NCBI GenBank assembly: GCA_964633865.1
Contig: CAZWIJ010000004.1
Location: 35,543 to 99,542, forward strand
Origin: an uncultured Candidatus Saccharibacteria bacterium
Lineage (GTDB): Bacteria; Patescibacteriota; Minisyncoccia; SW-4-49-11
Reading direction: 5' to 3'
Length of the DNA: 64,000 nucleotides
The notes under the pieces were generated by a model. It saw nothing but the letters and a program-made list of their open reading frames with translations. It ran no database searches and was not told where the DNA came from. Positions 31,971 to 53,464 of the stretch are shown here, piece by piece (the first letter of the stretch is position 1; each line of letters opens with the position of its first letter). The position numbers and the translations under genes are program-made.

Positions 31971-34832
31971 TTAAAAAACTATTCCTATCAAATAACCTGC
32001 TGCCTGTCCTTTATAATTTGTAAATGATCCTCCAAGCATAATCTTATTGTTATTTTGAATAGATGAAGTTAAAACTTGATTATTAAAGCCTGTTCCTATA
32101 TTAAAGCTATTATCTCGACTCCCATCACTGTTTAATCTTATTATTCTATTTGCAGCAGCTCCCTGATAGGTTGTGAAACTTCCTCCTATTATTAGTTTAC
32201 CGTCATTCTGAGTTGATATACTATAAACAATATTATTAAATCCTGTACCTATATTAAAACTATTATCTCGACTCCCATCACTATTTAATCTTATTATTCT
32301 ATTGACACCAACCCCTTGATAATTTGTGAAATCTCCTCCTACTATTACTTTTCCATCATTTTGAATTATTATACTTCTTACATTAGAACTAATACCTGTT
32401 CCTATATTAAAACTATTATCTCTACTTCCATCACTATTTAATCTGATGATTCTATTGGCAGTTATTCCTTGATAAGTTGTAAAACTTCCTCCTATTATCA
32501 CTTTTCCATCCCCCTGAATTCCTATAGAAAGAACTCCACCATTAAACCCTGTGCCTATATTAAAACTATTATCCCGACTTCCATTAATATTTAATCTTAT
32601 TATTCTATTGGCAGCTCCTCCCTGATAAGCTGTGAATCCTCCTCCTACTATCAACTTACCATCATTTTGTATAGATATAGAATTAACACTACCATTAAAT
32701 CCTGATAACAGATTAAAACTATTATCTCGACTCCCATCACTATTTAATCTTATTATTCTATTGACACCAACCCCTTGATAATTTGTGAAATCTCCCCCCA
32801 CTATTATCTTTCCATCGTTCTGAATATTTGTTATCAAAACATTATTATTAAATCCTGTTCCCACATTAAAACTATTGTCTCTACTTCCATTAGTATTCAA
32901 TCTCATTATTCTATTTATAGATTCTCCTTGATAGGTTATAAATTCCCCTCCTATTATTGTCTTCCCATCACTCTGACCTGTTATAGTTCTAACATTACCA
33001 TTAAGTCCTGGACCTAAATTAAGACTTGAATCTGTACTTCCATTTATATCAACTCTAATCATTCTGTTAGCAGTCAATCCTTGATAGGTTATGAAAGCTC
33101 CACCTATTATGAGTTTACTATCAGTCTGAATTAGTATAGTATTAACACTACTACTAAAACCTGTTCCTATATTAAAGCTATTATCTCGACTTCCATCACT
33201 GTTTAATCTGATGATTCTGTTTGCAGAAACTCCCTGATAGGTTGTGAAAGCTCCTCCTATAATTACTTTCCCATTGGTTGCTATATTTATACTTAATATA
33301 TTATTATTAAATCCTGTCCCTATATTGAAGCTATTATCCCGACTCCCATCACTATTTAATCTTACTATTCTGTTTAGAGTTACTCCCTGATAGGTTGTGA
33401 AACTTCCTCCTACTATAACCTTCCCATCACTTTGACTTGCTATACTATAAACAATATTATTAAATCCTATCCCTATATTGAAGCTATTATCCCGACTTCC
33501 ATCACTGTTTAATCTGATGATTCTGTTTGCAGAAACTCCCTGATAGGTTGTGAAATCTCCCCCTATTATTATTCTTCCATCACTCTGAATTGTTATACTC
33601 CTAATATTAGAACTAAAACCTGTACCTACATTAAAACTATTATCCCGACTTCCATCACTGTTTAATCTGATGATTCTGTTTGCAGAAACTCCCTGATAAG
33701 TTGTAAAACTTCCTCCTATTACCACCTTACCATCACTCTGAACACTTGAAGTAAGAATAATATTATTAAATCCTGTTCCTATATTAAAACTATTATCTCG
33801 ACTCCCATCACTATTTAGTCTTATTATTCTGTTAGCTACTACTCCCTGATAGCTTGTAAAACTTCCGCTTACTATAATCTTACCATCACTCTGAATTGAA
33901 TTGCTATAAACAATATTATTAAATCCTGTTCCCACATTAAAACTATCATCCCTACTCCCATCACTATTTAATCTTATTATTCTATTTGCACTAGCTCCTC
34001 GATAAGTTGTAAAATCGCCTACTACTATCATTTTTCCGTCACTCTGAGTTGAAATTACACGAACAATATTATCAAATCCAATAGGATCACTTATATCTAC
34101 ATTAAGATCTTTGTCACCTGAAGTTAATAGTATCGCATTCCCTCCACTATCCAGTGCTAAGGTTTTTTTTCCTAAAACTATTTTTGCTATTATCTCTTTA
34201 CCCTCATCTTCTGGCTTTACAGTATAACTCAATCCTTTACCTACCTCTGTTTCTACACCACCTGATACCGTATACCATATTATATCATCTTGATTTATAT
34301 CTAATCCAAAAGTTCCTAGTATTGCATTCAAAATATTCCCCACAACATTAACTCCACTTATCTCTAATGTTATATCCATTGGATTGATTGATATTAAATC
34401 TCCTAATTGAGCCTTATCTGCCCATAAACTTATTTTATTAGTAGCAGAATTAACCCCTATTTTATATCCTCCTTCTTTTGGATCTCTTGGTATTGATCCT
34501 ACATAATCTGGAACTAATAATCTTAAATCTACTTTACCAGTACAATCTATGATTCCATTTTCTGTTGTCTCATTTTTTGTATCACAAATTTCTAAATAAT
34601 TTCCGACTGGTATTCCAGATGGATACACCCCATTACTAATATAATATTGATCTAATGCTTTATGAATTGTGTTTATCCCAGACCATCTACTAGCATTATC
34701 TGCTTTCCCTAACTGTATAAAAGAATTAATAGCTACTACTGCGATTGAAACTATTAATCCTATTATTGCTACTGACAACATTATTTCAAACAAAGTGAAA
34801 CCTTTTTTATTTATTTTTATTAATTTCTTCAT
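31971..34832 (-). CDS. giant type IV pilin-like protein with ~14 delta-60/beta-propeller-like repeats
   Basis: 953 aa. Prepilin N-terminus KGFTLFEIMLSVAIIGLIV. Shares a conserved ~200-aa N-terminal module with the 791-aa neighbour. Then ~14 tandem ~50-aa units (GTGFNNxVxSIxIQSDGKIIVGGSFTTYQGVSANRIIRLNSDGSRDNSFNI) resembling delta-60 repeat / DUF5122. Confidence 0.6.
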   Translation of the reverse strand: MKKLIKINKKGFTLFEIMLSVAIIGLIVSIAVVAINSFIQLGKADNASRWSGINTIHKALDQYYISNGVYPSGIPVGNYLEICDTKNETTENGIIDCTGKVDLRLLVPDYVGSIPRDPKEGGYKIGVNSATNKISLWADKAQLGDLISINPMDITLEISGVNVVGNILNAILGTFGLDINQDDIIWYTVSGGVETEVGKGLSYTVKPEDEGKEIIAKIVLGKKTLALDSGGNAILLTSGDKDLNVDISDPIGFDNIVRVISTQSDGKMIVVGDFTTYRGASANRIIRLNSDGSRDDSFNVGTGFNNIVYSNSIQSDGKIIVSGSFTSYQGVVANRIIRLNSDGSRDNSFNIGTGFNNIILTSSVQSDGKVVIGGSFTTYQGVSANRIIRLNSDGSRDNSFNVGTGFSSNIRSITIQSDGRIIIGGDFTTYQGVSANRIIRLNSDGSRDNSFNIGIGFNNIVYSIASQSDGKVIVGGSFTTYQGVTLNRIVRLNSDGSRDNSFNIGTGFNNNILSINIATNGKVIIGGAFTTYQGVSANRIIRLNSDGSRDNSFNIGTGFSSSVNTILIQTDSKLIIGGAFITYQGLTANRMIRVDINGSTDSSLNLGPGLNGNVRTITGQSDGKTIIGGEFITYQGESINRIMRLNTNGSRDNSFNVGTGFNNNVLITNIQNDGKIIVGGDFTNYQGVGVNRIIRLNSDGSRDNSFNLLSGFNGSVNSISIQNDGKLIVGGGFTAYQGGAANRIIRLNINGSRDNSFNIGTGFNGGVLSIGIQGDGKVIIGGSFTTYQGITANRIIRLNSDGSRDNSFNIGTGISSNVRSIIIQNDGKVIVGGDFTNYQGVGVNRIIRLNSDGSRDNSFNIGTGFNNIVYSISTQNDGKLIIGGSFTTYQGAAANRIIRLNSDGSRDNSFNIGTGFNNQVLTSSIQNNNKIMLGGSFTNYKGQAAGYLIGIVF
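32050..34130 (-). repeat. in-frame tandem ~150-nt coding repeats with near-identical copies
   Basis: Example: an 85-nt stretch (aaaactattatctcgactcccatcactatttaatcttattattctattgacaccaaccccttgataatttgtgaaatctcc) occurs near 32253 and again near 32703. ttaaatctgatgattctgtttgcagaaactccctgata recurs near 33201, 33501 and 33651. Confidence 0.7.
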
Positions 34833-38461: not shown

Positions 38462-40435
38462 TTATTGAGGTCCTAATGGAGTATTCTGATCTATCACAAA
38501 TCCATATTCCAAAACATCGTCAGTGACAGCACCTATTGCATCCATTGCCTCAGGAGATAATCCTGAAACTCTATCGGTAAAGATTGCAGGACCTGATTCT
38601 ATAATAGAAGCAACTACTCTTCTTCCATTTTTTGGATTTGTAACCAAAACTTTTTTATTAGTGTGCCAAGCTTTTGATGAAGATGTGTTTGATATAGTAG
38701 AGGTAAATGGTCTTGGTCTCCAAGCTATATTTTGATATTTGTATACGAATACAACTTCTTCTCCATTATTAGCATTAACTGGTCCTGTAATGGTTATATT
38801 TGAACTAACATTAGAATTTTTAAAATTTGAACTAACATCATATCCTCTTGATTCAACTTTTAAGGTTGTATCATTAATTTTTGAATAAGCAATAATTTCT
38901 GAGCCTACTTTAACATAACCTGTTGAAGGAAATTGTGTAGCATTATTTACTAAAATTTGATTATCTCCAGATCCTAAGTTAGCTCTCAATGAAGTTCTAG
39001 CCTCATACCAATTAACATAATTCCATCTCATTGTAATATAATATTTTTCAGCTTCCACACCTCCTGGAGCTATTGAGCTATTTCTACTACCTGCTGGACA
39101 ACTAGAACTAAATGCTCCACCACTGCTTAGTAATCCATTTTGCAAATCATATCTTGTCCCTGCATTTGCATAATGTTGTTCTGGTGTTTCATTACAATTT
39201 ACTGGTAAATGTTGTTCTCTAGCTGTTTTTCCTGATGTAGCTGGTATTTGATAACCTTGAAGATTAGCTGTAGTAACATCACCAACTAATTCTCCAAGTG
39301 GATGAAGAGCTATCTGATCATCAGAAGCAGATCTTACATTTTCCCATCTATAACCTAGTGCTAAAAAGATTTTATCACTACCAATTGGCCTTCTTTTTCC
39401 ATCTTCTATTAAATATACTGAAGTTCTATCTGCTATAAGAGAACCATTATTGAATCCTATTGGAACACCTTTAGAATAATTATCTATAACTCTAGATTGT
39501 AGTTGTAATATATCTTGCCAATTATATCCATATGAATTAAATATATCAGGACTTAGTATTTGTCTTAACTCATTATTTTTTACTATATATAAGGTTGGTG
39601 AGCCATAAGCTTTTAGGATACTATTTTCAGAATACTTTTTAAGCCTACTAAATATAGGTCCTTCTGCAATAATTGATAATTCATAATCAGTAGCTCTTCT
39701 CACTTGATTCCAATTAAGTCCATAGCTTTCAAATATTTCTGCAGATCCTATTGGTAATCTTTGATTATTTTGCATCAAAAAAACACTAGTATCACTAGAT
39801 ATTAAAAGACCATCTGGATAATATTGATTTTCTCCAGTTGGGAAAGAATCTATTACAGCTTGACTAACTTGAATAGAAGAACTCCATCTATATCTTGCTT
39901 CAAATATTAAAGGAGATGGAATATATCTTTTTTGACCTTTCTCCAAAACATACATATGTCCAGTTGGTCCATAAATAAGACTACCATCTGGATAATTACT
40001 ATTACTAGTTAATACATCTCCAATTGGATGGGGTTCTATTTCTCTATCCGAAACTGAAATAACATTTTCCCACTTATAACCTTTACCTAAAAAAGTTTCT
40101 CCAGAATCTATAGGTCTTCTATATGTATTAGAAACAACATATACAGTACCTCCATAAGCTAAAAGAGAGCCTTCTCTAAACTGCATTTTAGATCCTGTAG
40201 GAATAGAATCTAGATCAGTTTGAGTTGTAACAACTAAATCTTCCCATCTGAATTGAGATATTAACATTTGAGGAGATTCAATATGTCTTTTCAACCCATT
40301 TTCTATATAATATACTTTAGGATCATTTATAGATTTAACCAATAATCCATTGGGAATTTCTACTGCATCTGCATAAATTGGAAAGAAAAGCATTCCTATT
40401 ACCAATATCTTATATAACAAATTATTTTTTAGCAT
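38462..40435 (-). CDS. secreted repeat protein with C-terminal RlpA-like/DPBB-like domain
   Basis: 657 aa. Signal peptide. ~8 tandem ~50-aa repeats (DGSLI..gt.VYlIe.GkrRpI.S..iF...GY.W.nV..vsd..l...P.G). C-terminus (…KKVLVTNPKNGRRVVASIIESGPAIFTDRVSGLSPEAMDAIGAVTDDVLEYGFV) resembles RlpA/3D double-psi beta-barrel domains. Confidence 0.4.
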   Translation of the reverse strand: MLKNNLLYKILVIGMLFFPIYADAVEIPNGLLVKSINDPKVYYIENGLKRHIESPQMLISQFRWEDLVVTTQTDLDSIPTGSKMQFREGSLLAYGGTVYVVSNTYRRPIDSGETFLGKGYKWENVISVSDREIEPHPIGDVLTSNSNYPDGSLIYGPTGHMYVLEKGQKRYIPSPLIFEARYRWSSSIQVSQAVIDSFPTGENQYYPDGLLISSDTSVFLMQNNQRLPIGSAEIFESYGLNWNQVRRATDYELSIIAEGPIFSRLKKYSENSILKAYGSPTLYIVKNNELRQILSPDIFNSYGYNWQDILQLQSRVIDNYSKGVPIGFNNGSLIADRTSVYLIEDGKRRPIGSDKIFLALGYRWENVRSASDDQIALHPLGELVGDVTTANLQGYQIPATSGKTAREQHLPVNCNETPEQHYANAGTRYDLQNGLLSSGGAFSSSCPAGSRNSSIAPGGVEAEKYYITMRWNYVNWYEARTSLRANLGSGDNQILVNNATQFPSTGYVKVGSEIIAYSKINDTTLKVESRGYDVSSNFKNSNVSSNITITGPVNANNGEEVVFVYKYQNIAWRPRPFTSTISNTSSSKAWHTNKKVLVTNPKNGRRVVASIIESGPAIFTDRVSGLSPEAMDAIGAVTDDVLEYGFVIDQNTPLGPQ

Positions 40436-41393: not shown

Positions 41394-42659
41394 TTAATAA
41401 ATCATTTTTTCAAAAGTTTTATTTCCTTCTCTTTTAATATAACATTTTTCTGGGAATAACACATAAAAAGTGGTTCCTTGATTTTGATGAGATGAAAACC
41501 ATATATCTCCATGAATCTCTTTCAAAATTGATTTTACTAAGTATAATCCTAAACCTGTTCCATCAGTATCTACATCATACACATTATCTGCTCTAAATAG
41601 TTTAGTAAATATTTTATCTTTTTGTTTTTCTGGTATACCAATACCAGAGTCTTTAACTGATAGTAAAATATTATTTGATCTAATTGATTTATCTTGAAAA
41701 GAAACTTCTTTTTTTATTGATAAGGATACTTCTATACTTCCTTTGTTTTTAGTATATTTAATTGCATTAGAAAATATATTTTGAAAAATTACCCTTATTA
41801 GAACTTCATCTCCAATATACATTTCTGGTATTTTTTTATCAATTTTAACAATAAATTTTATTTTCTTCTCTTTTATAATACCTTTAAATTCTGATTCTAA
41901 ATCTTTAATCATATGTCTTATGTTGAAATTAGATGGAGTTATTGCAAATGAACCTAATTCTAATCTAGATACATTTAATAAAGAGTTTACTAAATTAATC
42001 ATTCTACCAGTTGATTTTTGAATTTCTTGAATAAACTCTCTACTATCATCTGATAAACTATCACTTAATAATTCAGCATACCATCTAATTGAAGTAAGTG
42101 GGGTTTTTAATTGATGAGAAGCTAGAGATACAAACTCAGTCTTAACTTTATCAATTTCAATTTCCTGAGTTATATCGGTAATAATACCAAACATAAAGGG
42201 ATTCGTCTCTACAATATGATACATTCCTTTAATTCTTATATATCTCTGTTTATCATTATTTATAAAAGTTATTTCTTCAGAAAATGTAATTTCTTTTTCT
42301 ATAGAATCTCTAATTGCATTTGATAACTTTTTTAATTCATTTTTAGGTATAATTTTTTCTAAATCTTTCCAAGAAACTTTATTATAGTATCTTCTAGTAT
42401 TTATTCCTAATATATTCAATACTAATTTATCACATATAAAATATTTATCTTTTAAAGTATAATTCCATGTTCCAATTCCTCCTGCTTCTGAAGATAGCCT
42501 AAATCTTTCTGCTATAAAATCTTTCTCTTCTCTTTCTAATTGATAATCTTCTAAAATATTAATTATAGCTAACTTAGTATCTTCAATATGAGATAATTGA
42601 TTTTTTAATCTAATATTATCTTCAATTAAAGAATCTATCTTCTCAAGATTTTTATTCAT
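41394..42659 (-). CDS. PAS-domain sensor histidine kinase
   Basis: 421 aa. HisKA H-box SLASHQLKTPLTSI, HATPase_c G-boxes (DSGIGIP, GTGLGLYLV). PAS-like region upstream. Confidence 0.75.
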   Translation of the reverse strand: MNKNLEKIDSLIEDNIRLKNQLSHIEDTKLAIINILEDYQLEREEKDFIAERFRLSSEAGGIGTWNYTLKDKYFICDKLVLNILGINTRRYYNKVSWKDLEKIIPKNELKKLSNAIRDSIEKEITFSEEITFINNDKQRYIRIKGMYHIVETNPFMFGIITDITQEIEIDKVKTEFVSLASHQLKTPLTSIRWYAELLSDSLSDDSREFIQEIQKSTGRMINLVNSLLNVSRLELGSFAITPSNFNIRHMIKDLESEFKGIIKEKKIKFIVKIDKKIPEMYIGDEVLIRVIFQNIFSNAIKYTKNKGSIEVSLSIKKEVSFQDKSIRSNNILLSVKDSGIGIPEKQKDKIFTKLFRADNVYDVDTDGTGLGLYLVKSILKEIHGDIWFSSHQNQGTTFYVLFPEKCYIKREGNKTFEKMIY

Positions 42660-43140
42660 TATTATTTAATTTATCCTTTAATATATTTATTTCTTTTTTC
42701 AACTCAATCATCTTTAATTCTCTACCTATCATCAACTTATTTAATCTCTCTACCTCTTTCAAGTTTAATTCTAATGATTCTATCATTTTATTTCTTTCAG
42801 TAATATTTTTAACTACTCCATATATCATATTATTTTTAAGATTTTTATTAATAAACCACTCAAAATATAGAATCTCATTTTTTTTAGAAAGAAACCTAAT
42901 TTGAGAATTACTAATCTCTATATTATCTGAAAACAAAAAGTCTTTTGCTAAATCTCTATCATCTTTATAAATAAATTTTAATATATTCTTATTTAAAATA
43001 TCTTCTTCCATATAACCAGTTATGATAGTTAATAATTTATTAACATTAAAGATTTTATTTTCACTATAATTGATTATAATCATCATTACAGCTCCTGTCT
43101 CAAAAAAATGACATTTTTGTTCTTTATTATCCATATTCAT
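42652..43140 (-). CDS. PAS-like sensor domain protein
   Basis: 162 aa. PAS-like core plus C-terminal coiled coil. Its stop overlaps the kinase start by 8 nt (ATGAATAA). Confidence 0.4.
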   Translation of the reverse strand: MNMDNKEQKCHFFETGAVMMIIINYSENKIFNVNKLLTIITGYMEEDILNKNILKFIYKDDRDLAKDFLFSDNIEISNSQIRFLSKKNEILYFEWFINKNLKNNMIYGVVKNITERNKMIESLELNLKEVERLNKLMIGRELKMIELKKEINILKDKLNNNE

Positions 43141-43144
43141 ATAT

Positions 43145-43597
43145 TTATAATGTTATTTTTATTTCAACTTTTAATTCTGCTAATGGTGCTACAGTTATAA
43201 TTCTATTATTTTGAACCGCTACTTTGTATCCTGTGCTATATGGTTTACTAACAAAAGGATCTTTAGGTAATTCTACAAAATATGCATCATAATTTACTAT
43301 ATCTCCAAGATATAGAAGATTATGATCTCCACATACTGTTTTGTCTACAACAGCACAAATTTCTTGGAAATTACTACTTAAACCTTCTGGTAATTTATCA
43401 TTTTCTATATTATAAGCATAGAGAACTTGTGCTATATTAAGAATTTCAGATTTTCTCTCTCCATTTCTAATAACTGGTAAATATTCTGCCACTTGTTTCT
43501 GTATAAATATTACATATATAATCATAACCATAACAGCTATTGATAAAACTATTTCTAAATATGTAAATCCTTTTTTTCTATTTGATAACTTTTTCAT
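43145..43597 (-). CDS. type IV pilin-like protein (candidate major pilin)
   Basis: 150 aa. RKKGFTYLEIVLSIAVMVMIIYVIF: G|FTxLE prepilin cleavage motif plus hydrophobic helix. Conserved module shared with the 147-aa, 791-aa and 953-aa pilin-like proteins. Confidence 0.6.
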   Translation of the reverse strand: MKKLSNRKKGFTYLEIVLSIAVMVMIIYVIFIQKQVAEYLPVIRNGERKSEILNIAQVLYAYNIENDKLPEGLSSNFQEICAVVDKTVCGDHNLLYLGDIVNYDAYFVELPKDPFVSKPYSTGYKVAVQNNRIITVAPLAELKVEIKITL

Positions 43598-43644: not shown

Positions 43645-44751
43645 TTATAACCCATATCTTCCACGGAGAGCATCAAAGTTCTGTTGAATTTCTGGTCCAG
43701 TGAGAGCTTTATCATACACTTTAATAGAATAAATATCTCCTATAATTCTTCTAAAAGAACTTGATCTTTCATCACCAAAGGAAGTTATATTAGAAAAATT
43801 TGAAGGTGTAGATACTAAAGGTTGAGAAACTCTTTGGACTCCATCAACATAAGCCGTTTGATTTACCCCATCCCAAGTAAGAACAATTTGCCTAACAGTA
43901 TTTGAATCTCCTATTATACCAGTTCCCATATTTAACCAAGAACCATTAAATGAAGCATAAATTTCTCCATTCTGCAAAGGTTGACTAGCTACAGTATTTC
44001 CAGCATATCCAATTCCAAGGTAAGCAGTTCCAATCCAATTATTCAAACTATTATTATGTAATATATATCCAATCCCAACATCAGAACTTGGAGAAGAAAT
44101 AGCTTTAACCCAAACTTCATAAGTCTGAGGTGAATTAGATGTTATAGGAGATGTAAAAGTTCCTCTATCATCAATTCCATCAAATGTCAAAGAACCTTGA
44201 TTAGCAGAATTAAAACCTACTCCATTCAAAAGAGTAGCATCATTTCCAATACTTGCTAAATTTGTCCAATTAGTTCCTGCTCCAGGATATGATGATGGAT
44301 CACCAGCATCCAAATTTAAAACTAATCCATCAGTAACTATACTATTATTTACTTCTACAAAATTTATAACCTTATTCCAAGAAGTTACTTCTACAGCTAA
44401 TCCTATACTTACAATACCTACAAATCTCTGAACAAAATCATCTTTATCTATCCTTATTTCTAATCTTTTCTCTGTAGGTGAATTATCACTTACACTATAA
44501 GTACAGGTTCCACTAACAACATCAGTAGCTGTATAACTAGTATCATTGAAAATTTCAAGCAAAATATTTTCTCTACAATTAATTGCATCTGATTCTATTA
44601 TAACTTGTGTATTATTGGAATAATTTCTATAGATAGATTCGAAACTCATATTAAATAAAGTTAAACTTATACCCAAGGTAACTGTCATTATTATTAGAAC
44701 TGTCATTAATGTAATATATCCTTTTTTCATAGATTTAGAGTGTTTTATCAA
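43645..44751 (-). CDS. pilin-like protein fused to ConA/LamG-like lectin domain
   Basis: 368 aa. Pilin-like N-terminal TM (KKGYITLMTVLIIMTV). C-terminal LVLNLDAGDPSSYPGAGTNWTNL...GSLTFDGIDDRG...YEVWVKA matches the LamG/ConA-like (PF13385-type) pattern. Confidence 0.5.
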   Translation of the reverse strand: MIKHSKSMKKGYITLMTVLIIMTVTLGISLTLFNMSFESIYRNYSNNTQVIIESDAINCRENILLEIFNDTSYTATDVVSGTCTYSVSDNSPTEKRLEIRIDKDDFVQRFVGIVSIGLAVEVTSWNKVINFVEVNNSIVTDGLVLNLDAGDPSSYPGAGTNWTNLASIGNDATLLNGVGFNSANQGSLTFDGIDDRGTFTSPITSNSPQTYEVWVKAISSPSSDVGIGYILHNNSLNNWIGTAYLGIGYAGNTVASQPLQNGEIYASFNGSWLNMGTGIIGDSNTVRQIVLTWDGVNQTAYVDGVQRVSQPLVSTPSNFSNITSFGDERSSSFRRIIGDIYSIKVYDKALTGPEIQQNFDALRGRYGL

Positions 44752-45208
44752 AATTTAGTTGATATTTTAGTGTTTGTCTACTATTAGTAAGGTATGTGGC
44801 ATCCATATTGACTGTAATAGAATCATTATCTATCGTTCCTTTATTCTCAAATAATAAATTTGTAATAGAAATTTCATCTATATGTAAAGGAATTATCCCG
44901 TTAACACTACTTTCTACAAAAATCCCTGATTGAACTTCATATGTATAAGTAATACCTCCACTAACTAAAACTAAACTAGTTTGACTTGTATTAGGAGTTG
45001 GAGAAGTAATACTAGTTGCTGTATCTATTCTATGAGATATATGTTGTAGAGCTGCATCTGTCCCCATTTGAACTTGATTCATAGCAAGGGTTTTTTCTCT
45101 AACTGTAATTGTTGTAACATATACTTGTGATAGAGCTAGTGTTACAACTCCAATTAAAGATACCCCTAACATCAACTCTAATAATGATAAACCTTTTTTC
45201 TTTTTCAT
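44735..45208 (-). CDS. pseudopilin / minor pilin
   Basis: 157 aa. KKKGLSLLELMLGVSLIGVV prepilin N-terminus. Overlaps neighbours (operon). Confidence 0.55.
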   Translation of the reverse strand: MKKKKGLSLLELMLGVSLIGVVTLALSQVYVTTITVREKTLAMNQVQMGTDAALQHISHRIDTATSITSPTPNTSQTSLVLVSGGITYTYEVQSGIFVESSVNGIIPLHIDEISITNLLFENKGTIDNDSITVNMDATYLTNSRQTLKYQLNFDKTL

Positions 45209-47304
45209 TATGGTATTATTAAACTAGCTGGTTTTGTTGTCCCATCACTGAATACAAGAATAAAACTAAGAGTACTTCCAGCAGATAATGCTCCATTAAA
45301 TCTAAATTCCAAAGGATAATCTGCATAAAGATCAAAATCTGTGATATTAGCATTATAAGGTGAAGTATTATTATAACTACCAGCAGTAGCATTATTAACA
45401 CGAATACTACTTAATCTTCGATTTCCAGTACTATTCCAAGTTATATTGTTTATATTTGTAACTCTAACTCTACAACCAGAATTATTTCTAATTCTTATAT
45501 TGCTTAAATTCCTTCTGTTTCCCGATATTGTAATTTGAGACACATCTACAGTTGTAGTATTCGCCTGATTCGTACATAAATTTATGTCTGTACTAAAATT
45601 AAATGAAGGTACTACATAAGATGACCCATCAGCAAAGACTAATCTAAACGAATTATTACTATTAAAAATTGTTCCAGAAAACTGAAAAAGTAATTCTTGA
45701 GTATTCTCTATATTTGTATTATTGATAGGAATATTTCTACCCAAAACTGTATCTCTAGTTAGATTCCCAGTCCATACATTAAGAGAATTGTCAGTTCTAT
45801 TAATAAATTTAGGTCCAATTTTAATAGAAGCTAAATTAACATTTGTGGTCCAAATAAATTCATTAATATCGGTTAAAACAACTGGACAAGCTGTTCCTGT
45901 AGTATTAACTAACTCTATCCCCCTTATTATCCTATTATCGGAAGTTAGGCTATTTGAAGTAGTATCAGGGAAAGCGGTATTTATGATATTAGCCTGGAAA
46001 TTTTGAGCTTGAGTATTAGAAATACAAGGATCTATTGGTAAAGAAATTATACCACTATCAAGTGTTGATCCATCAGTAAAGACTACTGTGAATGAGATAT
46101 TTTGTGCAGTCATTGGAGCATTGTATTGTAAAACTAACTCCTTAGTGTTTGTTATAACTGTATTTGTAACATCAATATTATGACCTGGACTAGACAAAGG
46201 AGCTAAATTACCTGTCCATACATTAACAGTATTATTTAAATCTCCTATTTTGATTGCTGATAGGTTATTACTTTGCCATAATAAAGAGTTTATGCCGTCT
46301 ACCTCAATATTACAAGTTGTACCTGTATTATTAATAAGTCTTATTCCTCTTATCATTCTATTTTGACTTACACCTATAGAATCAAATGACCAATTACTGG
46401 TATCCAAAGTTGTATTCTGTGCTTGAGTGAATACACAAGGATCTAAATCAGAATAAATCACTCCACTATTCAAAACTGATCCATCACTAAATATTACCGC
46501 GAAAGTTAAACTCTGCCCCGTCATCTGACTATCAAACAAAAATGCTAGTTCATGAGTTCCCGTTATATCTTGATCATTTATATCTATATTTTTATTTGAA
46601 GGAGACTCTGTACCAGACCAAATATTAAAGTTGGAGTCTAATTTGTCAAAACCTTCTGCTCCAAATTTTACATTGGTTAAGTTATTATTTTGCCATTCAA
46701 CAGAGTTTATATTTGTTGCTTGAATATTACAATCACTAGAATTATTATTAATTAATCTTATTCCTCGAATTAAGCGAGATCTATTAGATGGAGAATTATC
46801 ATTGGTAGCAGATTCTATAGAAAAACTACTTATGTCTAATGTAGTATTCTCAGCCTGAGTACCTAAACATGTTATCAAAGGTTCTTGCCAACTTTTATAT
46901 GTTACTTGAGAAGATAGACTATCACCTCTTCCATTTTTACCAATCCAAGTGATATTGATAACAGCTTGTACCGTATCAGAATCTGGTTGAGTTAGAGTTA
47001 CTGATCTTTGGTAGTCTCCTAAAGTTTCTACTCCAGAAATTAATGCCCAATTACTTCCAAGTGTAAATCCAAGCGGTGTCGCAGTAGAATAACCAACTAA
47101 TCTATCATATTTCAAAGTATCTAATGCTCTTGTAGCTTCTTGCAAATATTCATAACCTTGTGTCCTTTCTCCTTTAACAAGAATACTTCTTTGATATTCT
47201 GTAATTGTTCCAACTATACCAACAATTACAAAACCTGTTAAGCCTATTGATAAAACTATTTCTAATAATGAAAAACCTTTATTTTTTTTAAATAACAAGC
47301 CCAT
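45208..47304 (-). CDS. large minor-pilin-like protein with 4 internal ~125-aa repeats
   Basis: 698 aa. KNKGFSLLEIVLSIGLTGFVIVG prepilin N-terminus. Four tandem repeats each containing R(M/L)IRGIRLINN..(S/T)xC...NIN...W...L..(V/I)K.G. Confidence 0.5.
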   Translation of the reverse strand: MGLLFKKNKGFSLLEIVLSIGLTGFVIVGIVGTITEYQRSILVKGERTQGYEYLQEATRALDTLKYDRLVGYSTATPLGFTLGSNWALISGVETLGDYQRSVTLTQPDSDTVQAVINITWIGKNGRGDSLSSQVTYKSWQEPLITCLGTQAENTTLDISSFSIESATNDNSPSNRSRLIRGIRLINNNSSDCNIQATNINSVEWQNNNLTNVKFGAEGFDKLDSNFNIWSGTESPSNKNIDINDQDITGTHELAFLFDSQMTGQSLTFAVIFSDGSVLNSGVIYSDLDPCVFTQAQNTTLDTSNWSFDSIGVSQNRMIRGIRLINNTGTTCNIEVDGINSLLWQSNNLSAIKIGDLNNTVNVWTGNLAPLSSPGHNIDVTNTVITNTKELVLQYNAPMTAQNISFTVVFTDGSTLDSGIISLPIDPCISNTQAQNFQANIINTAFPDTTSNSLTSDNRIIRGIELVNTTGTACPVVLTDINEFIWTTNVNLASIKIGPKFINRTDNSLNVWTGNLTRDTVLGRNIPINNTNIENTQELLFQFSGTIFNSNNSFRLVFADGSSYVVPSFNFSTDINLCTNQANTTTVDVSQITISGNRRNLSNIRIRNNSGCRVRVTNINNITWNSTGNRRLSSIRVNNATAGSYNNTSPYNANITDFDLYADYPLEFRFNGALSAGSTLSFILVFSDGTTKPASLIIP

Positions 47305-47698
47305 ATTGATTTATATTAATTATTTTGTCTATTGTAAGATTTATTGTAGTATCAGTTGAAAGTCCTGTCACTCTATCAAATGTAACTATAATTGGAGATC
47401 CCATACTTATATTTTTCAAATCATAAATCTGATCAAAATTTGTATCTCTATTATTATAATCATCTCCCAAAAAAACTATTGCTGATGAAGAATCTATTCT
47501 TACAGACCAATCAGAATCCTCCAATCCAAATACAGCTTTTTCTCTTGCCACTCTTAGAGCTAAAATTACATTAATTTCTGAATTTCTCTGTTCATTTTTT
47601 TCTATCACTTCTATAGATATTGGAAGGGAAAAGGATACTAATATTCCAATAACAGCAATTGTCAACATTATTTCTAATAAAGAAAATGCTTCTTTCAT
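47288..47698 (-). CDS. pseudopilin / minor pilin
   Basis: 136 aa. MKEAFSLLEIMLTIAVIGILVS (FSLLE with hydrophobic helix; Ala rather than Gly at -1). Confidence 0.5.
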   Translation of the reverse strand: MKEAFSLLEIMLTIAVIGILVSFSLPISIEVIEKNEQRNSEINVILALRVAREKAVFGLEDSDWSVRIDSSSAIVFLGDDYNNRDTNFDQIYDLKNISMGSPIIVTFDRVTGLSTDTTINLTIDKIININQYGLVI

Positions 47699-47699
47699 A

Positions 47700-48743
47700 T
47701 TACAATCCTTTTAATAATGAATACATAGGTCCTATAATAGAATAAGCCAATCCCAAAACTGCAAACCAAACTATAATCAGAATAGCTGGTTCTAATATGC
47801 TTGGAATAGATTTTGCTAATCTATACAATTCTTTCTCATATCTTATACCTATTTTTTGAAACACAGTTAAAAAACTTCCTGATTTTTCTGCAAATACAAT
47901 CATAGCAGGAACTTGATCAGGAAACAGCATTTCTGTTTCTGGAATAGATTTGATAACTTCATCCATTGTTTTTCCTTCATCTATTAAATCTATAACTTTT
48001 TGATAATACTCCTTATAATAATGATTATCAGAAACTCCTTTTAATAAAGTTAAAGCTTCTGTAAAAGGATATCCAGCATTTAGTAAGCTTCCTAACATAT
48101 ATCCCATTCTTGATGATTCTGCTGATATAACAATTTTTTTTATTAGCGGTGTAGATAATTGTATTCTCTCACCAATAAATTTAGTTTTCTTATTGAAAAA
48201 TAAAAAATAAAAAGCAATTAACATAAATAAAACTACAGCTGGAACAAAAATCATTCCCCACTTAGCAAAAAAATTTCCAATAGAAATTAAAATTTGTGTT
48301 TGAATTGGTATTTCAACTCTCAAAACTAAAAATGATTCTGTTAATTTTGGTAAAACAAACCACATAATTCCAAGCCCAACAAAGAAAGTTGTTAATAAAA
48401 CAAATACAGGATAGGTTAACACTGTAATAATTTTATTATTTAAAGAGAACCTTTTTTCTTCATTAATCAGAGCCAGTTTGAAATTTTCTTGTAGACTACC
48501 ACTTTCCTCGCCTATCTTAATAAGAGAAACCACATAATGTGGAAATATTTTATTTTTATCAAAAGACTCCCATAATAAATTTCCTTCTTCAACTAAACTA
48601 ACCACATTTTCAAAAGCTTTTTTTAAATCTTTATCTTTTATTTTTTTCGATACTTCTGAAATAGATTCTACTATAGATATCCCAGATTCAGACAAATTAT
48701 AAATATTTTCTAATGCATAAAATGCTTGTTTTTGATTTATCAT
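47700..48743 (-). CDS. pilC: type IV pilus / T2SS inner-membrane platform protein (PilC/GspF family)
   Basis: 347 aa. Two T2SSF-like domains with 3 TM segments. Directly downstream of pilB. Confidence 0.8.
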   Translation of the reverse strand: MINQKQAFYALENIYNLSESGISIVESISEVSKKIKDKDLKKAFENVVSLVEEGNLLWESFDKNKIFPHYVVSLIKIGEESGSLQENFKLALINEEKRFSLNNKIITVLTYPVFVLLTTFFVGLGIMWFVLPKLTESFLVLRVEIPIQTQILISIGNFFAKWGMIFVPAVVLFMLIAFYFLFFNKKTKFIGERIQLSTPLIKKIVISAESSRMGYMLGSLLNAGYPFTEALTLLKGVSDNHYYKEYYQKVIDLIDEGKTMDEVIKSIPETEMLFPDQVPAMIVFAEKSGSFLTVFQKIGIRYEKELYRLAKSIPSILEPAILIIVWFAVLGLAYSIIGPMYSLLKGL

Positions 48744-48747
48744 ATAT

Positions 48748-50445
48748 TTACTCTTTTAAAAATTTTTCTGGAATTTTTACAACTCTAACCAATTCTTCAA
48801 AGTTAGTAATTCCTTTTTTTACTTTATCCAATCCATCCTCAAACATAGATATATATTCTTCCTCATTTATAATTGACTGTACTGATTTTATATTCTCAGC
48901 TAAAGCATCTTTCATATCATGAGTAATAGCTAAAACTTCAAATACTGCTGTTCTTCCTTTATATCCAGTAAATCCACATTCTCTACACCCTTTGCCATTA
49001 AAGACATTTATTTTAGTTTTTGGAAAAACTTTAAATATACCCGGAACAATCTTTTTTAACTCCGCAATAGACATTTCTTTACTATATTTACAATGAGGAC
49101 AAATAGTTCTAATTAGTCTTTGAGAAATAATTAAATCTATAGTAGATGAAAGTAAAAATGGCTCTATGCCCATGTCATAAAGTCTAGGTAAAGTAGATAT
49201 AGCATCATTTGCATGAAATGTAGATAAAACTAAATGACCAGTTAAAGCAGAGTTGACCGCAATTTCAGCTGTTTCATTATCTCTTATTTCACCAACTAAA
49301 ATAACATCTGGATCTTGTCTAACAATCGATCTTAAAGCTTTAGCAAAAGTTATATTTTTTTGCTCATTTACTTGAATTTGATTTACTCTGTCTATTCTAT
49401 ATTCTACGGGATCTTCAATAGTAGTAATATTGACTTTAGTATCAATCAAATCTCTAATAGCAGCATATAGAGTTGTTGTTTTTCCTGACCCTGTAGGACC
49501 ACTTACTAAAATTAGCCCGAAAGGATTTTTTAGATTATCATTAATTAATTTAAAAGCTTTATCAGATAAACCTATAGAATCTAAACCTAAATCACTTACA
49601 TACCTAAATAGGATTCTAACAACAACTTTTTCACCATCCATAACTGGAGCAACCGAGATTCTCATATCAACCGTTGTGTTTTTTTTAGTCAAATACCTGA
49701 TTGAACCATCCTGAGTTTCAAAATGCTCATCAAGTCTTAATTTAGAAAGTACTTTTAATCTGTTAACAATATTCTCATAAAAATTTTTAGGCAGAATACC
49801 AATATCATGCAAAACTCCATCTATACGAAATCTAATAACAACATCTTCCGAAAATGGTTCAAAATGTATATCAGAAGCTTTTTGAGCAAGAGCATCTTCA
49901 AATATTTCTTTCACTATGTCAGGAACAACTTGCTCTCCTTTTGATACAATTTCAGATATTCTGTCAGAAAAATTATTTTTATATAATAAAAAGGAATCTT
50001 CTATTGAATTTGGCAAAGAATAACCTAATTTAACTTCTTTATCAGGGAAAATTTCTTTTATTATAGAAATTAACTTTTCATCAGGATTACTAGTGGCCAC
50101 AAATATTTCCATCTTACTCTCTGCAAAAGGGACTATTTTATATTTATTAGCTATGTCATAATTTATTTTTTTTACTAAATCTGTACTTGGAGGAAATGAT
50201 TTTAGATCAAATAAATTTAGAGAATAAAACTCAGACATAGCCTGACCAACAAGGTCTGATGTTACTATATTAGAAGATATTAATATAGTATAAGCTTCAT
50301 CAAAACTTTTATCAGAGAAATCTACCTGTAAATCATCAATATCATCTTGCTCAATATAATTTTGTTTAACAATGATATTAACAAGGTCTAGACCTGTTAT
50401 CTCTTTAATTTCTATTTCTTTATTTTTAAAAATTGGATTTTGCAT
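48748..50445 (-). CDS. pilB: type IV pilus assembly ATPase (PilB/GspE family)
   Basis: 565 aa. Walker A SGPTGSGKTTTL, Asp box, Walker B ILVGEIRD, His box LVLSTFHAN, tetracysteine CPHC...CREC motif. Confidence 0.85.
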   Translation of the reverse strand: MQNPIFKNKEIEIKEITGLDLVNIIVKQNYIEQDDIDDLQVDFSDKSFDEAYTILISSNIVTSDLVGQAMSEFYSLNLFDLKSFPPSTDLVKKINYDIANKYKIVPFAESKMEIFVATSNPDEKLISIIKEIFPDKEVKLGYSLPNSIEDSFLLYKNNFSDRISEIVSKGEQVVPDIVKEIFEDALAQKASDIHFEPFSEDVVIRFRIDGVLHDIGILPKNFYENIVNRLKVLSKLRLDEHFETQDGSIRYLTKKNTTVDMRISVAPVMDGEKVVVRILFRYVSDLGLDSIGLSDKAFKLINDNLKNPFGLILVSGPTGSGKTTTLYAAIRDLIDTKVNITTIEDPVEYRIDRVNQIQVNEQKNITFAKALRSIVRQDPDVILVGEIRDNETAEIAVNSALTGHLVLSTFHANDAISTLPRLYDMGIEPFLLSSTIDLIISQRLIRTICPHCKYSKEMSIAELKKIVPGIFKVFPKTKINVFNGKGCRECGFTGYKGRTAVFEVLAITHDMKDALAENIKSVQSIINEEEYISMFEDGLDKVKKGITNFEELVRVVKIPEKFLKE

Positions 50446-50494: not shown

Positions 50495-50887
50495 TTATTT
50501 ACTATCATATAAATAAAAGTTTACTATTTCTAATATTTTATTTAAAGGCATCTCCGATTTTATATAATAAGCTGTTGCCCCAAGATCTTTAACTCTTAAC
50601 TTGTCTTCTGGTTGACCTAGATTAGATAGAATAATAATAGGAATCTCTTTATTTTTTTGTCTAATAGCTTTTAGCACTCCAAATCCATCTATTTCTGGCA
50701 CAATTAAATCTAAAAGGACTATATGTATATTAGAATCAAACAAATTAATAGCCTCTCTTCCATTATAAGTTGTGAGAATATCATAACCTGCTGATCTTAA
50801 CTTTAATTCCAAAGCCTTAGCTAAAGGCTTTTCATCTTCACAAATCAAAATTTTTCTCTTATTATCTAATTTTTCTATTTTATCCAT
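50495..50887 (-). CDS. single-domain response regulator (CheY/PilH-like receiver)
   Basis: 130 aa. Receiver fold with phospho-acceptor Asp in VLLDLIVPEIDG. No output domain. First gene of the pilus operon. Confidence 0.75.
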   Translation of the reverse strand: MDKIEKLDNKRKILICEDEKPLAKALELKLRSAGYDILTTYNGREAINLFDSNIHIVLLDLIVPEIDGFGVLKAIRQKNKEIPIIILSNLGQPEDKLRVKDLGATAYYIKSEMPLNKILEIVNFYLYDSK

Positions 50888-53020: not shown

Positions 53021-53464
53021 TCAACCACTAACTTCTATCGATATATCTAATTCTGGATTAATTACATCCACCCAAATTTTATTATCCAAAATTCTTAATC
53101 TATATCCAGTTCCATCAATTTCATCTTCATCTAAAGGATCTTCTGGAATAGATTCAAAGTATTCACTCTTTAATAAAGATAAATCCAGATAACCTGAACA
53201 ATCTATCGCCTTATCATCACAAATTTCCTGATATTGATCAGTTATTCCAGCAGGGTATGATCCTTCTAATGATCTATATTTCAAAATTACGGAGATTATT
53301 TCTTGAACATCTAATCGTCTTTGATTATTTCTTTGTTTCTGTAATCTATTTGTACTATTAACCACAATTAATATTCCACCTAATAAAATACCAATAATTG
53401 AAATAGTTAATATCATTTCTAAAACTGTGAAAGCTGTTTTATTATTATTTATTTTTGTTCTCAT
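53021..53464 (-). CDS. type IV pilin-like protein (orphan paralog)
   Basis: 147 aa. KTAFTVLEMILTISIIGILLGGILIVV. Same conserved module (…YP.G…QEICD…IDC.G…DLSLL…IPEDP) as the 150-aa pilin and the giant proteins. Confidence 0.55.
   Translation of the reverse strand: MRTKINNNKTAFTVLEMILTISIIGILLGGILIVVNSTNRLQKQRNNQRRLDVQEIISVILKYRSLEGSYPAGITDQYQEICDDKAIDCSGYLDLSLLKSEYFESIPEDPLDEDEIDGTGYRLRILDNKIWVDVINPELDISIEVSG

Follow-up and report, generated by a model that had tools for sequence, protein, structure and literature searches.

A probable K-position minor pilin with a phage-type LamG module in a type IV pilus locus of a CPR bacterium

Results

The pilus locus and the limits of the gene

The window analysed here, a stretch of 64,000 nt in all, covers positions 35,543-99,542 of the forward strand of contig CAZWIJ010000004.1 (GCA_964633865.1) from an uncultured Candidatus Saccharibacteria bacterium. 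It harbours a pilus locus in the order RR-PilB-PilC-136-698-157-target-150-PAS-HK, in which the numbers are protein lengths in residues and the target is the gene under study:

50495-50887, response regulator (Response_reg)
48748..50445, minus strand, PilB/GspE-type assembly ATPase (PF00437 T2SSE, E 3.4e-118, and an MshEN domain)
47700..48743, minus strand, PilC/GspF-type platform protein (PF00482 T2SSF, E 1.2e-37)
47288..47698, minus strand, 136-aa minor pilin at the H position (TIGR02532, E 1.3e-4; weak matches to GspH, 2.7e-4, and ComGD, 1.7e-3)
45208..47304, minus strand, 698-aa modular pilin at the I position (ComGE-like N-terminus, E 1.9e-6)
44735..45208, minus strand, 157-aa minor pilin, the third, at the J position (canonical N_methyl motif; PF07963, E 3.1e-5, and TIGR02532)
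43645..44730, minus strand, the target, a predicted 361-aa modular minor pilin starting from the ATG at 44730 (ORF list, start-region sequence)
43145..43597, minus strand, 150-aa pilin with a canonical G/FTYLE, downstream of the target (translation; weak GspG/ComG matches)
41394..43140, minus strand, PAS protein and histidine kinase directly downstream of the pilus genes (HisKA, HATPase_c, PAS)

The 698-aa pilin combines a prepilin N-terminus with four tandem repeats of ~140 aa that belong to no Pfam family, and its ortholog in locus L087 reaches 985 aa. The 150-aa protein is a candidate for the major or a fifth pilin. The PAS/histidine kinase and response regulator genes flank the pilus genes, an arrangement kept in loci L001-L004 and L087, and the gene order of the locus is maintained both in contigs of the same organism and in a related species whose PilB is 91% identical. 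Another CPR locus (L161) reads PilB-PilC-151-147-162-127-156. It has a 147-aa protein at the I position, a 127-aa stand-alone member of the family of the target's N-terminal module at the fourth position and an N_methyl pilin in the place of the 150-aa pilin. The target, last of the four consecutive minor-pilin genes after PilB-PilC and devoid of Glu5, thus occupies the K position, and the 'PilX-like' label given to it in the initial annotation fits this fourth place.

Neither a PilT-type retraction ATPase nor PilM/N/O genes were found among the window ORFs scanned. No prepilin peptidase (peptidase A24) was found in this subset of the window ORFs either, and the genome extends past the window. 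The window also encodes two more modular pilins of very large size, which contain beta-propeller and DUF285 repeats, and a TrwB/VirD4-like ATPase.

In the ORF list, positions 43645-44751 delimit an exact minus-strand ORF of 368 aa that begins with TTG. Starting at this TTG (44751) would create a 17-nt overlap with the upstream gene, whereas the ATG at 44730 lies 4 nt past the stop of that gene. The gene callers applied to public contigs chose the same ATG for the identical 361-aa protein (P0001), called on at least 24 contigs, and for all three of its relatives. The ATG is therefore the more likely start, and residues are numbered from it below unless stated otherwise. The gene is chromosomal and lies among CPR housekeeping genes, including those for GroEL, RuvC, YebC, POR and Mur ligases. 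The best matches of the GroEL encoded in the window are at 65-66% and include Komeilibacteria, Buchananbacteria and Falkowbacteria. With the target as query, no relative was found among 185,579 species genomes.

The N-terminal pilin module

The target protein can be divided into the following parts:

44359..44730, minus strand, complete pilin module, aa 1-124 (HMMER, family alignment A3, AlphaFold2)
44719..44730, minus strand, leader peptide MKKG, with putative prepilin-peptidase cleavage after the Gly(-1) at its end (family conservation)
44653..44718, minus strand, hydrophobic alpha1-N segment YITLMTVLIIMTVTLGISLTLF (sequence; within helix 2-62 of the AlphaFold2 model)
44341..44358, minus strand, linker VEVNNS, the putative junction of two ancestral proteins (family end points)
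43648..44340, minus strand, LamG/ConA-like module, aa 131-361 (PF13385, PHROG, AlphaFold2, Foldseek)

The N-terminus, MKKG/YITLM..., has Gly at -1, Tyr at +1 and Leu at +4, but Met rather than Glu at +5, and the leader is followed by a hydrophobic stretch of ~22 residues. These features are shared by the 41 aligned members of the pilin-module family: Gly-1, Tyr/Phe+1 and Leu+4 are each present in 39 of them, position +5 is occupied by I, L, M, V, S, T or Y and never by Glu, and the leaders ahead of Gly-1 are mostly basic and 4-34 residues long. The pilin-type hydrophobic N-terminus without Glu+5 proposed initially is thus borne out by the target sequence and by its family. The module also carries a conserved Cys52/Cys76 pair and ends with the family motif SWxxVxxF.

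An exhaustive HMMER search identified 39 stand-alone proteins of ~130 aa that cover aa 2-124 of the module. The family has 83 further members of 99-175 aa, none of which has a Pfam domain on record. In these alignments, the module is a full-length representative of a CPR family of ~130-aa stand-alone proteins that lacks annotation. The N_methyl models PF07963 and TIGR02532 do not match the target at E values up to 0.1, whereas they match neighbouring pilins, and PF03934 (T2SSK/GspK), PF14341 (PilX_N) and PF14173 (ComGG) gave no match in the target. Within the aligned family, ComGG and PilX_N each match three of the 41 members, marginally (best E 0.0011 and 0.007, respectively).

With no more than three full-length homologues to align, the AlphaFold2 model of the whole protein has pLDDT values below 50 for aa 1-128. 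The module was modelled from its own family alignment, which yielded a helix of ~60 residues (2-62) followed by five strands, with a mean pLDDT of 93.4. Foldseek found no significant match of this model in the PDB, to a pilin or otherwise. As for the criteria that define type IV pilins, the leader, Gly-1 and the aromatic residue at +1 are present, but Glu+5 and an N_methyl match are not. The absence of Glu5 is a known exception among pilins, in K-type subunits. Given the short basic leader, the family-conserved Gly, the ~22 hydrophobic residues that continue into one long helix in the model and the predicted five-stranded sheet, the data support a class III (prepilin-type) signal at the N-terminus rather than a Sec signal.

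The LamG module and the fusion

The C-terminal half matches Pfam Laminin_G_3 (PF13385) with 39.2 bits for a gathering cut-off of 27.6 bits (E 1e-9, aa 194-356 of the 368-aa form), and the pattern from which a LamG/ConA-like domain had been recognized initially corresponds to aa 136-188. AlphaFold2 predicts a two-sheet beta-sandwich jelly-roll for aa 130-361 with pLDDT above 90. With this model, Foldseek retrieved trans-sialidase lectin domains, domain 4 of AbnA (TM-score 0.71, normalised to the target) and the Hc-N domain of clostridial neurotoxins, with a probability of 1.0 and E values of ~1e-10, as well as phage LamG jelly-roll proteins in BFVD (E values down to 2.8e-18). Pfam, AlphaFold2 and Foldseek concur, and the fold claimed in the initial annotation is thus predicted with high confidence. 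Among solved structures, the profile came closest to an S-layer LamG domain and to the CBM40 of NanA, which binds sialic acid. From its fold and relatives, the module would bind carbohydrate. A glucanase function was rejected, as the GH16-type ExDxxE motif is absent. A relation to the phage 'ring protein gp10', suggested by a single-sequence PDB match (E 0.022), disappeared with the family profile and was dropped.

The C-termini of the pilin family stop at the Phe that precedes VEVNNS, and the phage LamG proteins align from the IVTDGLVL that follows it. As each half is a whole member of a family of stand-alone proteins, the gene is, judging from these alignments, an end-to-end fusion of a complete pilin-family protein with a complete LamG protein, and it has been seen only in one small clade. 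The linker differs between orthologs. On a single 1.9-kb contig (L159), the gene is split into overlapping ORFs of 131 and 244 aa, with a 7-nt insertion in the C-rich linker relative to the fused genes. The overlap and the insertion led us to set aside the idea that it represents a pre-fusion state. More probably, a gene that was fused before has undergone a frameshift, either real or introduced during assembly.

Phage relatives of the LamG module

The LamG module matches PHROG 24074 (E 1.5e-26) and phrog_8510, 'virion structural protein' (E 6.5e-16). It is 50-68% identical to stand-alone proteins of ~230 aa, and a 'virion structural protein' of Synechococcus phage S-PM2 shares 38% identity with it across the full domain. 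Homologues were found at 71 IMG/VR loci. In the loci of the close relatives, L005, L163 and L164, the surrounding genes include tail-fibre and tail genes, and all four phage loci examined contain tail, tail-fibre or other phage marker genes. The phage relatives that could be examined look like T4-type cyanophages: they have CP12 and ferredoxin, as well as tail proteins whose closest matches are those of Synechococcus phages. The phage LamG homologues are annotated no further than 'virion structural protein', and a literature search on LamG in cyanophage tail fibres returned nothing useful.

In the LamG tree, the CPR copies are monophyletic in 197 of 200 bootstrap replicates and nested among the stand-alone proteins in all 200. 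The LamG part has a GC3 of 0.11, the same as the neighbouring genes; its higher total GC content stems from codon positions 1 and 2, i.e. from amino-acid content. A recent horizontal transfer detectable by composition was rejected on this basis. The LamG module of the target is encoded in a CPR chromosome and is a homologue, presumably captured by a cell, not a phage gene.

Discussion

The domain organization and genetic context of the target make it probable that this protein is a Glu5-less, K-position (GspK/PilX/ComGG-like) minor pilin at the tip of a type IV pilus, to which a phage-type LamG module has been appended, and that it binds a surface glycan. The two-module architecture, both predicted folds, the place in the operon, the stand-alone ancestry of each half and the phage affinity of the LamG half are shown by the present data, whereas cleavage, tip location, glycan binding and the binding target are inferred. 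The proposed mechanism would operate as follows. The prepilin would enter the membrane via its hydrophobic alpha1-N segment and be cut after Gly4. It would then join the three preceding minor pilins in a priming complex and, lacking Glu5, would sit on top of it. Polymerization of the filament from tip to base by PilB/PilC would bring the LamG module to the distal tip, where it might bind a glycan on the surface of another cell, most plausibly the bacterial host that episymbiotic CPR bacteria require.

The principle of a lectin carried by a pilin is already established, as lectin-bearing modular pilins have been described (PMC9934059, PMC8179133, PMC11623550); what is new here is the example and its unusual origin. 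The lectin pilin PilC of S. sanguinis, which binds glycans, similarly consists of a pilin module, a short connection and a ConA-like beta-sandwich, and it is encoded in a pilus operon. It has been modelled at the pilus tip with a Glu5-less partner (PMC9934059). PilC differs from the target by its canonical class III signal peptide, in which Glu5 is present, and by an additional Ig-like module. In the model of its tip complex, the first-added subunit without Glu5 is a separate protein, PilA, whereas in our case the subunit without Glu5 itself carries the lectin. The target showed no detectable sequence similarity to PilC, which occurs neither in its PDB sequence matches nor in its best 50 Foldseek matches.

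Closer in taxonomic terms are PilX1 and PilX2 of Nanosynbacter lyticus TM7x, minor pilins of Saccharibacteria with lectin-like C-terminal domains (PMC11623550). The PilX1 jelly-roll resembles L-type lectins and is reportedly absent from NCBI CD-Search; PilX2, whose signal peptide is non-canonical, is required for the host to be bound efficiently; and host cell-wall glycans matter for attachment (PMC11623550). Compared by description rather than by sequence, they and the target are minor pilins of the same superphylum with C-terminal accessory domains. Unlike PilX1, the target is a clear PF13385 member of the phage type, and it is known from sequence alone.

The InterPro survey of Raynaud et al. 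2021 lists pilin+PF13385, the same combination as in the target, among the 15 commonest modular-pilin architectures (PMC8179133). The target corresponds to their definition of a modular pilin by its pilin module (aa 1-124), its VEVNNS linker and its PF13385 domain, but not by IPR012902. As the survey required this N-methylation motif and none is detectable in the target, the latter would have escaped it. Moreover, the carrier is a K-type subunit here and a canonical pilin in the surveyed architecture. As for GspK, PilX and ComGG, they too lack Glu5, are encoded by the last of four minor-pilin genes, are bulky and are expected to cap the filament, although they have no significant sequence match with the target. 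GspK owes its bulk to an alpha-domain that interrupts the pilin sheet, and the target to a beta-sandwich appended at the C-terminus.

Other readings of the target differ in the part of the model that they dispute. One of them has the N-terminal helix as an uncleaved signal-anchor, in which case the protein would be a membrane-anchored surface lectin that never enters a filament and displays LamG at the surface or in the cell-wall zone, e.g. to bind the cell's own envelope or to hold a partner cell close. The lack of Glu5, the absence of N_methyl, PilX_N, ComGG or GspK matches on the target and the failure of Foldseek to recover a pilin for the N-terminal model would all fit such an anchor. Nevertheless, we regard it as quite improbable: the family-wide Gly-1, Tyr/Phe+1 and Leu+4 behind variable basic leaders constitute a prepilin-peptidase signature, the gene keeps its place among the pilin genes behind PilB/PilC even in distant CPR loci, and the globular part is modelled as a helix-plus-sheet lollipop. 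It is even harder to envision the locus as a type II secretion- or competence-type pseudopilus, with a K-like subunit capping a short piston, periplasmic or spanning the wall, and LamG touching cargo or the cell wall. The minor pilins do match only weakly, and to GspH/GspG/ComG models, and PilT-type ATPase and PilM/N/O were not seen among the scanned window ORFs. However, similar loci are reported to give rise to genuine surface type IV pili in CPR bacteria (PMC11623550), and the two very large modular pilins in the window can be understood only as proteins displayed on the cell exterior. We thus consider this possibility very remote.

It could also be that the protein is a true tip pilin whose LamG module does not bind glycans but instead a protein receptor, serves in DNA uptake, or protects the cell, as a decoy or shield, from phages specific for the pilus. 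The ConA-like fold is promiscuous in its ligands: some such domains bind proteins or have ligands not established, as exemplified by the neurotoxin Hc-N domain, which is among the Foldseek matches. The type IV pili of CPR bacteria have been linked to DNA uptake, a TrwB/VirD4-like ATPase is encoded in the same window, and the phage homologues have no known ligand. Yet the solved structures nearest by profile are the S-layer LamG domain and the NanA CBM40, which binds sialic acid, sialidase lectin domains and an arabinan-binding domain give the best structural matches, and the ConA-like pilin module that has been tested experimentally binds glycans (PMC9934059). We therefore deem a non-glycan ligand unlikely and favour a glycan-binding tip pilin.

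The stand-alone LamG proteins of large myoviruses (PHROG 24074/8510, S-PM2) share 38-68% identity with the target over the entire module, as well as the predicted fold. The module is colinear with them from about residue 9 to the last residue, with a common C-terminus. In phage genomes they occur either free, with ~230 aa, or as the C-terminal module of a tail protein, while the target is chromosomal, pilin-fused and host-like in codon composition. One may speculate that the LamG protein was a receptor-binding protein which the CPR bacterium took from a large myovirus and placed on its pilus tip, and that the episymbiont and the phage lineage recognise the same surface glycan on one kind of host cell, although we hold this scenario to be rather unlikely. 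If it were true, the hosts of the phage relatives would predict the host of this uncultured CPR lineage, and bacterial episymbionts would draw host-range determinants from phage tail modules.

Type IV pili are the leading candidates for how ultrasmall CPR/Patescibacteria find and hold their hosts, and the target offers a clean, datable case of a pilus gaining binding specificity. It also defines a CPR family of K-type minor pilins of ~130 aa that current pilin models miss. Its soluble domain, aa 125-361, is an expressible candidate for glycan or host-cell binding, and the phylogenetic link to phages could hint at the target cell.

The pilus gene cluster and its organism

The window has a G+C content of 27% and carries housekeeping genes for GroEL, RuvC, YebC, a thioredoxin-reductase-like protein, Mur ligases, a PBP, G6PD, HisRS and RF. 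Against 185,579 species genomes, its GroEL reached at best 65-66% identity, with matches including Komeilibacteria, Buchananbacteria, Falkowbacteria and 'Patescibacteria group' genomes. As the matches go no higher, the organism belongs to a CPR/Patescibacteria lineage that has no close reference genome. The target protein, which is encoded in the following pilus gene cluster, had no match in the same genomes.

50495-50887, minus strand: response regulator (stand-alone receiver-domain protein), cluster position 1
48748-50445, minus strand: PilB/GspE ATPase, position 2
47700-48743, minus strand: PilC/GspF platform protein, position 3
47288-47698, minus strand: 136-aa pilin with weak GspH/ComGD matches, position 4
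45208-47304, minus strand: 698-aa pilin with a ComGE-like N-terminus and four repeats of ~140 aa, position 5
44735-45208, minus strand: 157-aa pilin (N_methyl), position 6
43645-44730, minus strand: target, position 7
43145-43597, minus strand: 150-aa pilin (G/FTYLE), position 8
41394-43140, minus strand: PAS protein and histidine kinase, position 9

Several metagenomic contigs from the same organism show an identical order. It is also kept in a related species (locus L087), whose proteins are 91% (PilB), 90% (PilC) and 75% (target) identical to those of the window; within the target, the pilin module shares 79% and the LamG module 72% identity. A further CPR locus, L161, reads PilB-PilC-151-147-162-127-156; its 127-aa protein, a member of the family of the target's pilin module, takes the same place as the target, fourth after PilC. 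The PAS/histidine kinase and receiver genes flank the pilus genes in every syntenic locus, which suggests dedicated two-component control of the pilus. Within the cluster, the PAS protein shows the lowest conservation, with 53% identity between the two species. Downstream, a 657-aa ORF (38462-40435, minus strand) is kept in all syntenic contigs and has no Pfam match at E up to 0.001.

The 698-aa pilin occupies the I position. Its ComGE-like prepilin N-terminus (E 1.9e-6) precedes four tandem repeats, each with a Cys pair and an NRxIRGIxLxNN motif, for which there is no Pfam family. Its orthologue in L087 has 985 residues and the equivalent slot in L161 holds the 147-aa protein, indicating that two of the four minor pilins have been expanded in the target's lineage.

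Other putative pilins lie outside the operon. A 953-aa protein (31971-34832, minus strand) combines a prepilin N_methyl motif with 13 DUF5122 beta-propeller repeats (E 3.9e-179), a large modular pilin that recalls the beta-propeller PilX2 of Saccharibacteria. Adjoining it, a third modular pilin of 791 aa (29501-31876, minus strand) carries a prepilin N_methyl motif and five DUF285 repeats (E 8.6e-116). A 147-aa pilin gene with an N_methyl motif (53021-53464, minus strand) adjoins a MacB/FtsX-type permease gene, is found at the same place in four contigs of the same organism (L001-L004) and in L087, and is a candidate for the major pilin. We also found an 801-aa TrwB/VirD4/HerA-like coupling ATPase (59257-61662, minus strand; TrwB_AAD_bind, DUF87, TraG-D_C) on this CPR chromosome; the few adjacent ORFs scanned include no evident type IV secretion genes.

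A complete putative minor pilin at the N-terminus

The segment 43645-44751 (minus strand) is an exact ORF of 368 residues with a TTG start at 44751. An ATG at 44730, 4 nt past the stop of the upstream gene, is the start called on public contigs for the identical protein (P0001, 361 aa) and its three relatives, and residue numbers refer to this 361-residue form. The initial annotation had proposed a pilin-type N-terminus lacking Glu+5 (PilX-like) joined to a ConA/LamG-like lectin domain, and our analyses confirm the observation and support this reading. The N-terminus, MKKG/YITLMTVLIIMTVTLGISLTLF, indeed has Gly-1, Tyr+1 and Leu+4, with Met in place of Glu at +5 and a stretch of ~22 hydrophobic residues after it.

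An exhaustive HMMER search of 1.84 billion representative proteins with residues 1-135 yielded 41 matches, all of them stand-alone proteins of 126-158 aa except the close relatives P0002 and P0130. The stand-alone members cover residues 2-124 of the target and stop where its linker starts. A profile search gave 83 proteins of 99-175 aa, a few of which were already among the 41; none of the 83 has a Pfam domain on record, and the named ones come from Roizmanbacteria, Daviesbacteria and Woesebacteria. Members have a basic leader of 4-34 residues, a near-invariant Cys pair (Cys52 and Cys76) and a C-terminal SWxEVxDF motif. In the alignment of the 41, Gly-1, Tyr/Phe+1 and Leu+4 are each present in 39, and position +5 is non-acidic in all.

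With the family alignment, AlphaFold2 modelled residues 1-130 (mean pLDDT 93.4) as a single helix (2-62) followed by five antiparallel strands, a predicted fold that would correspond to the lollipop shape of type IV pilins, and Foldseek found no significant match to this model in the PDB. Sub-threshold Pfam matches were to ComGG in three family members and to PilX_N in three. We interpret the N-terminal half of the target as a small minor pilin, complete in itself, from a family specific to CPR bacteria. As the K subunit of HIJK sets in type IV filaments lacks Glu5 and caps the tip complex (PMC9934059), we take this family to supply the K-position subunit of CPR pili, which would act like GspK/PilX/ComGG while lying outside those families by sequence.

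A phage-type LamG protein at the C-terminus

In the target, VEVNNS links the C-terminal motif of the pilin family (SWNKVINF) to IVTDGLVL, where the LamG core starts; this linker sequence varies between orthologues. In a relative's orthologue (L159:1087-1121, on the 1.9-kb Logan contig ERR14790933_1341253), a 7-nt insertion in the C-rich linker (CCACCCACCACC) divides the gene into two ORFs that overlap, one of 131 aa with the pilin module and one of 244 aa with LamG. Seen in one low-coverage contig, the split may be due to misassembly, to pseudogene formation or to a slippery linker.

The LamG/ConA-like character of this half was confirmed by Pfam and by structure prediction and search. Laminin_G_3 (PF13385) scored 39.2 bits against a gathering score of 27.6 (E 1e-9), and AlphaFold2 with 34 homologues gave pLDDT >90 over residues 130-361. 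Foldseek matched this model to PDB lectin-like domains of trypanosomal trans-sialidases, to the arabinan-binding domain 4 of AbnA and to the Hc-N jelly-roll of clostridial neurotoxins (all with probability 1.0 and E ~1e-10), and to phage LamG jelly-roll proteins in a viral structure library (E down to 2.8e-18). The S-layer LamG domain 4qvs (E 2e-9) and the sialic-acid-binding CBM40 of pneumococcal NanA (E 0.006) are the solved chains closest to it by sequence profile.

Among 704 homologues of the whole target, only three (P0001-P0003) are full length. The next ~65 clusters consist mostly of ~230-aa proteins that match residues 128-361 with 44-68% identity. These stand-alone proteins begin with MGISYNPRTITDGLVL and finish with QQNFNALRSRYSI, so that the target's module corresponds to a whole protein minus its first ~8 residues, with coinciding C-termini.

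We examined four genomic contexts of stand-alone relatives. On a 106-kb contig (L005), the LamG gene has a 1741-aa tail-fibre protein on one side and tail-fibre-assembly and tail proteins on the other; the closest matches of a neighbouring tail protein are in the Synechococcus myoviruses S-WAM2 and S-CAM4. A 144-kb contig (L006) encodes CP12, ferredoxin and homing endonucleases, and L164 has three LamG paralogues, a GIY-YIG endonuclease and three tail proteins. L163 harbours a tail-fibre protein (phrog_529, E 0) and a 578-aa protein (L163:12617-14353, plus strand) with an N-terminal tail-protein domain (phrog_5939) and a C-terminal LamG module (phrog_24074, E 2.3e-28), showing that phages too use the module as a C-terminal add-on. 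Relatives occur in 71 IMG/VR loci, and the best cultured-phage match is a 'virion structural protein' of S-PM2, which aligns with 100% of the module at 38% identity. PHROG 24074 (E 1.5e-26) and phrog_8510 (E 6.5e-16) fit the target far more strongly than Pfam does. The C-terminal half of the target is a complete phage-type LamG protein.

A neighbour-joining tree of 82 domains groups the four CPR copies as a clade of their own in 197 of 200 bootstrap replicates. They fall within a clade of stand-alone proteins, away from deep outgroups, in all 200, with no exact sister group resolved. We infer that the LamG gene passed once from phage to cell, in the ancestor of this small CPR clade, and was then fused in frame to the K-type pilin gene. 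The GC3 of the module is host-like (0.11, against ~0.20 in phage genes), so the capture is not recent on the scale of base-composition drift.

Proposed function

The prepilin probably inserts into the membrane via alpha1-N, is cleaved after Gly4 and joins the three preceding minor pilins in a priming complex. Lacking Glu5, it would sit on top of that complex, and growth of the filament from tip to base would carry the LamG module to the distal end, where it could bind a surface glycan of another cell. For CPR bacteria, the obvious binding target would be the host cell on which they live. Less likely, the target might be a membrane anchor outside any filament, the locus might encode a pseudopilus rather than a pilus, or the ligand of the LamG module might be something other than a glycan.

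A glycan-binding pilus tip has precedents, as lectin-bearing modular pilins are already established. PilC of S. sanguinis, in which a pilin is combined with a ConA-like lectin module, binds sialylated glycans as well as heparin oligosaccharides and was placed at the pilus tip in a model (PMC9934059). In an InterPro survey of >1,200 modular pilins with 264 architectures, pilin plus PF13385 ranked within the 15 commonest, and CPR phyla had many representatives (PMC8179133). Lectin-like C-terminal domains are also present in the PilX minor pilins of Nanosynbacter lyticus TM7x; there PilX2, which has a non-canonical signal peptide, is required for efficient host binding, and attachment is influenced by host cell-wall sugars (PMC11623550).

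The target differs from such pilins in detail and origin, not in principle: its carrier is a Glu5-less K-type subunit of a family missed by N-methylation models, and its LamG module comes from a phage tail-module lineage. Within the pilin family (>100 proteins), only the target's clade has an extra module. The value of the target rests mainly on the clean fusion of two proteins and on the phage link. We regard it as rather unlikely that this link reflects a receptor shared by the phage lineage and the CPR bacterium; if it did, it might serve as a clue to the host of an uncultured CPR lineage.
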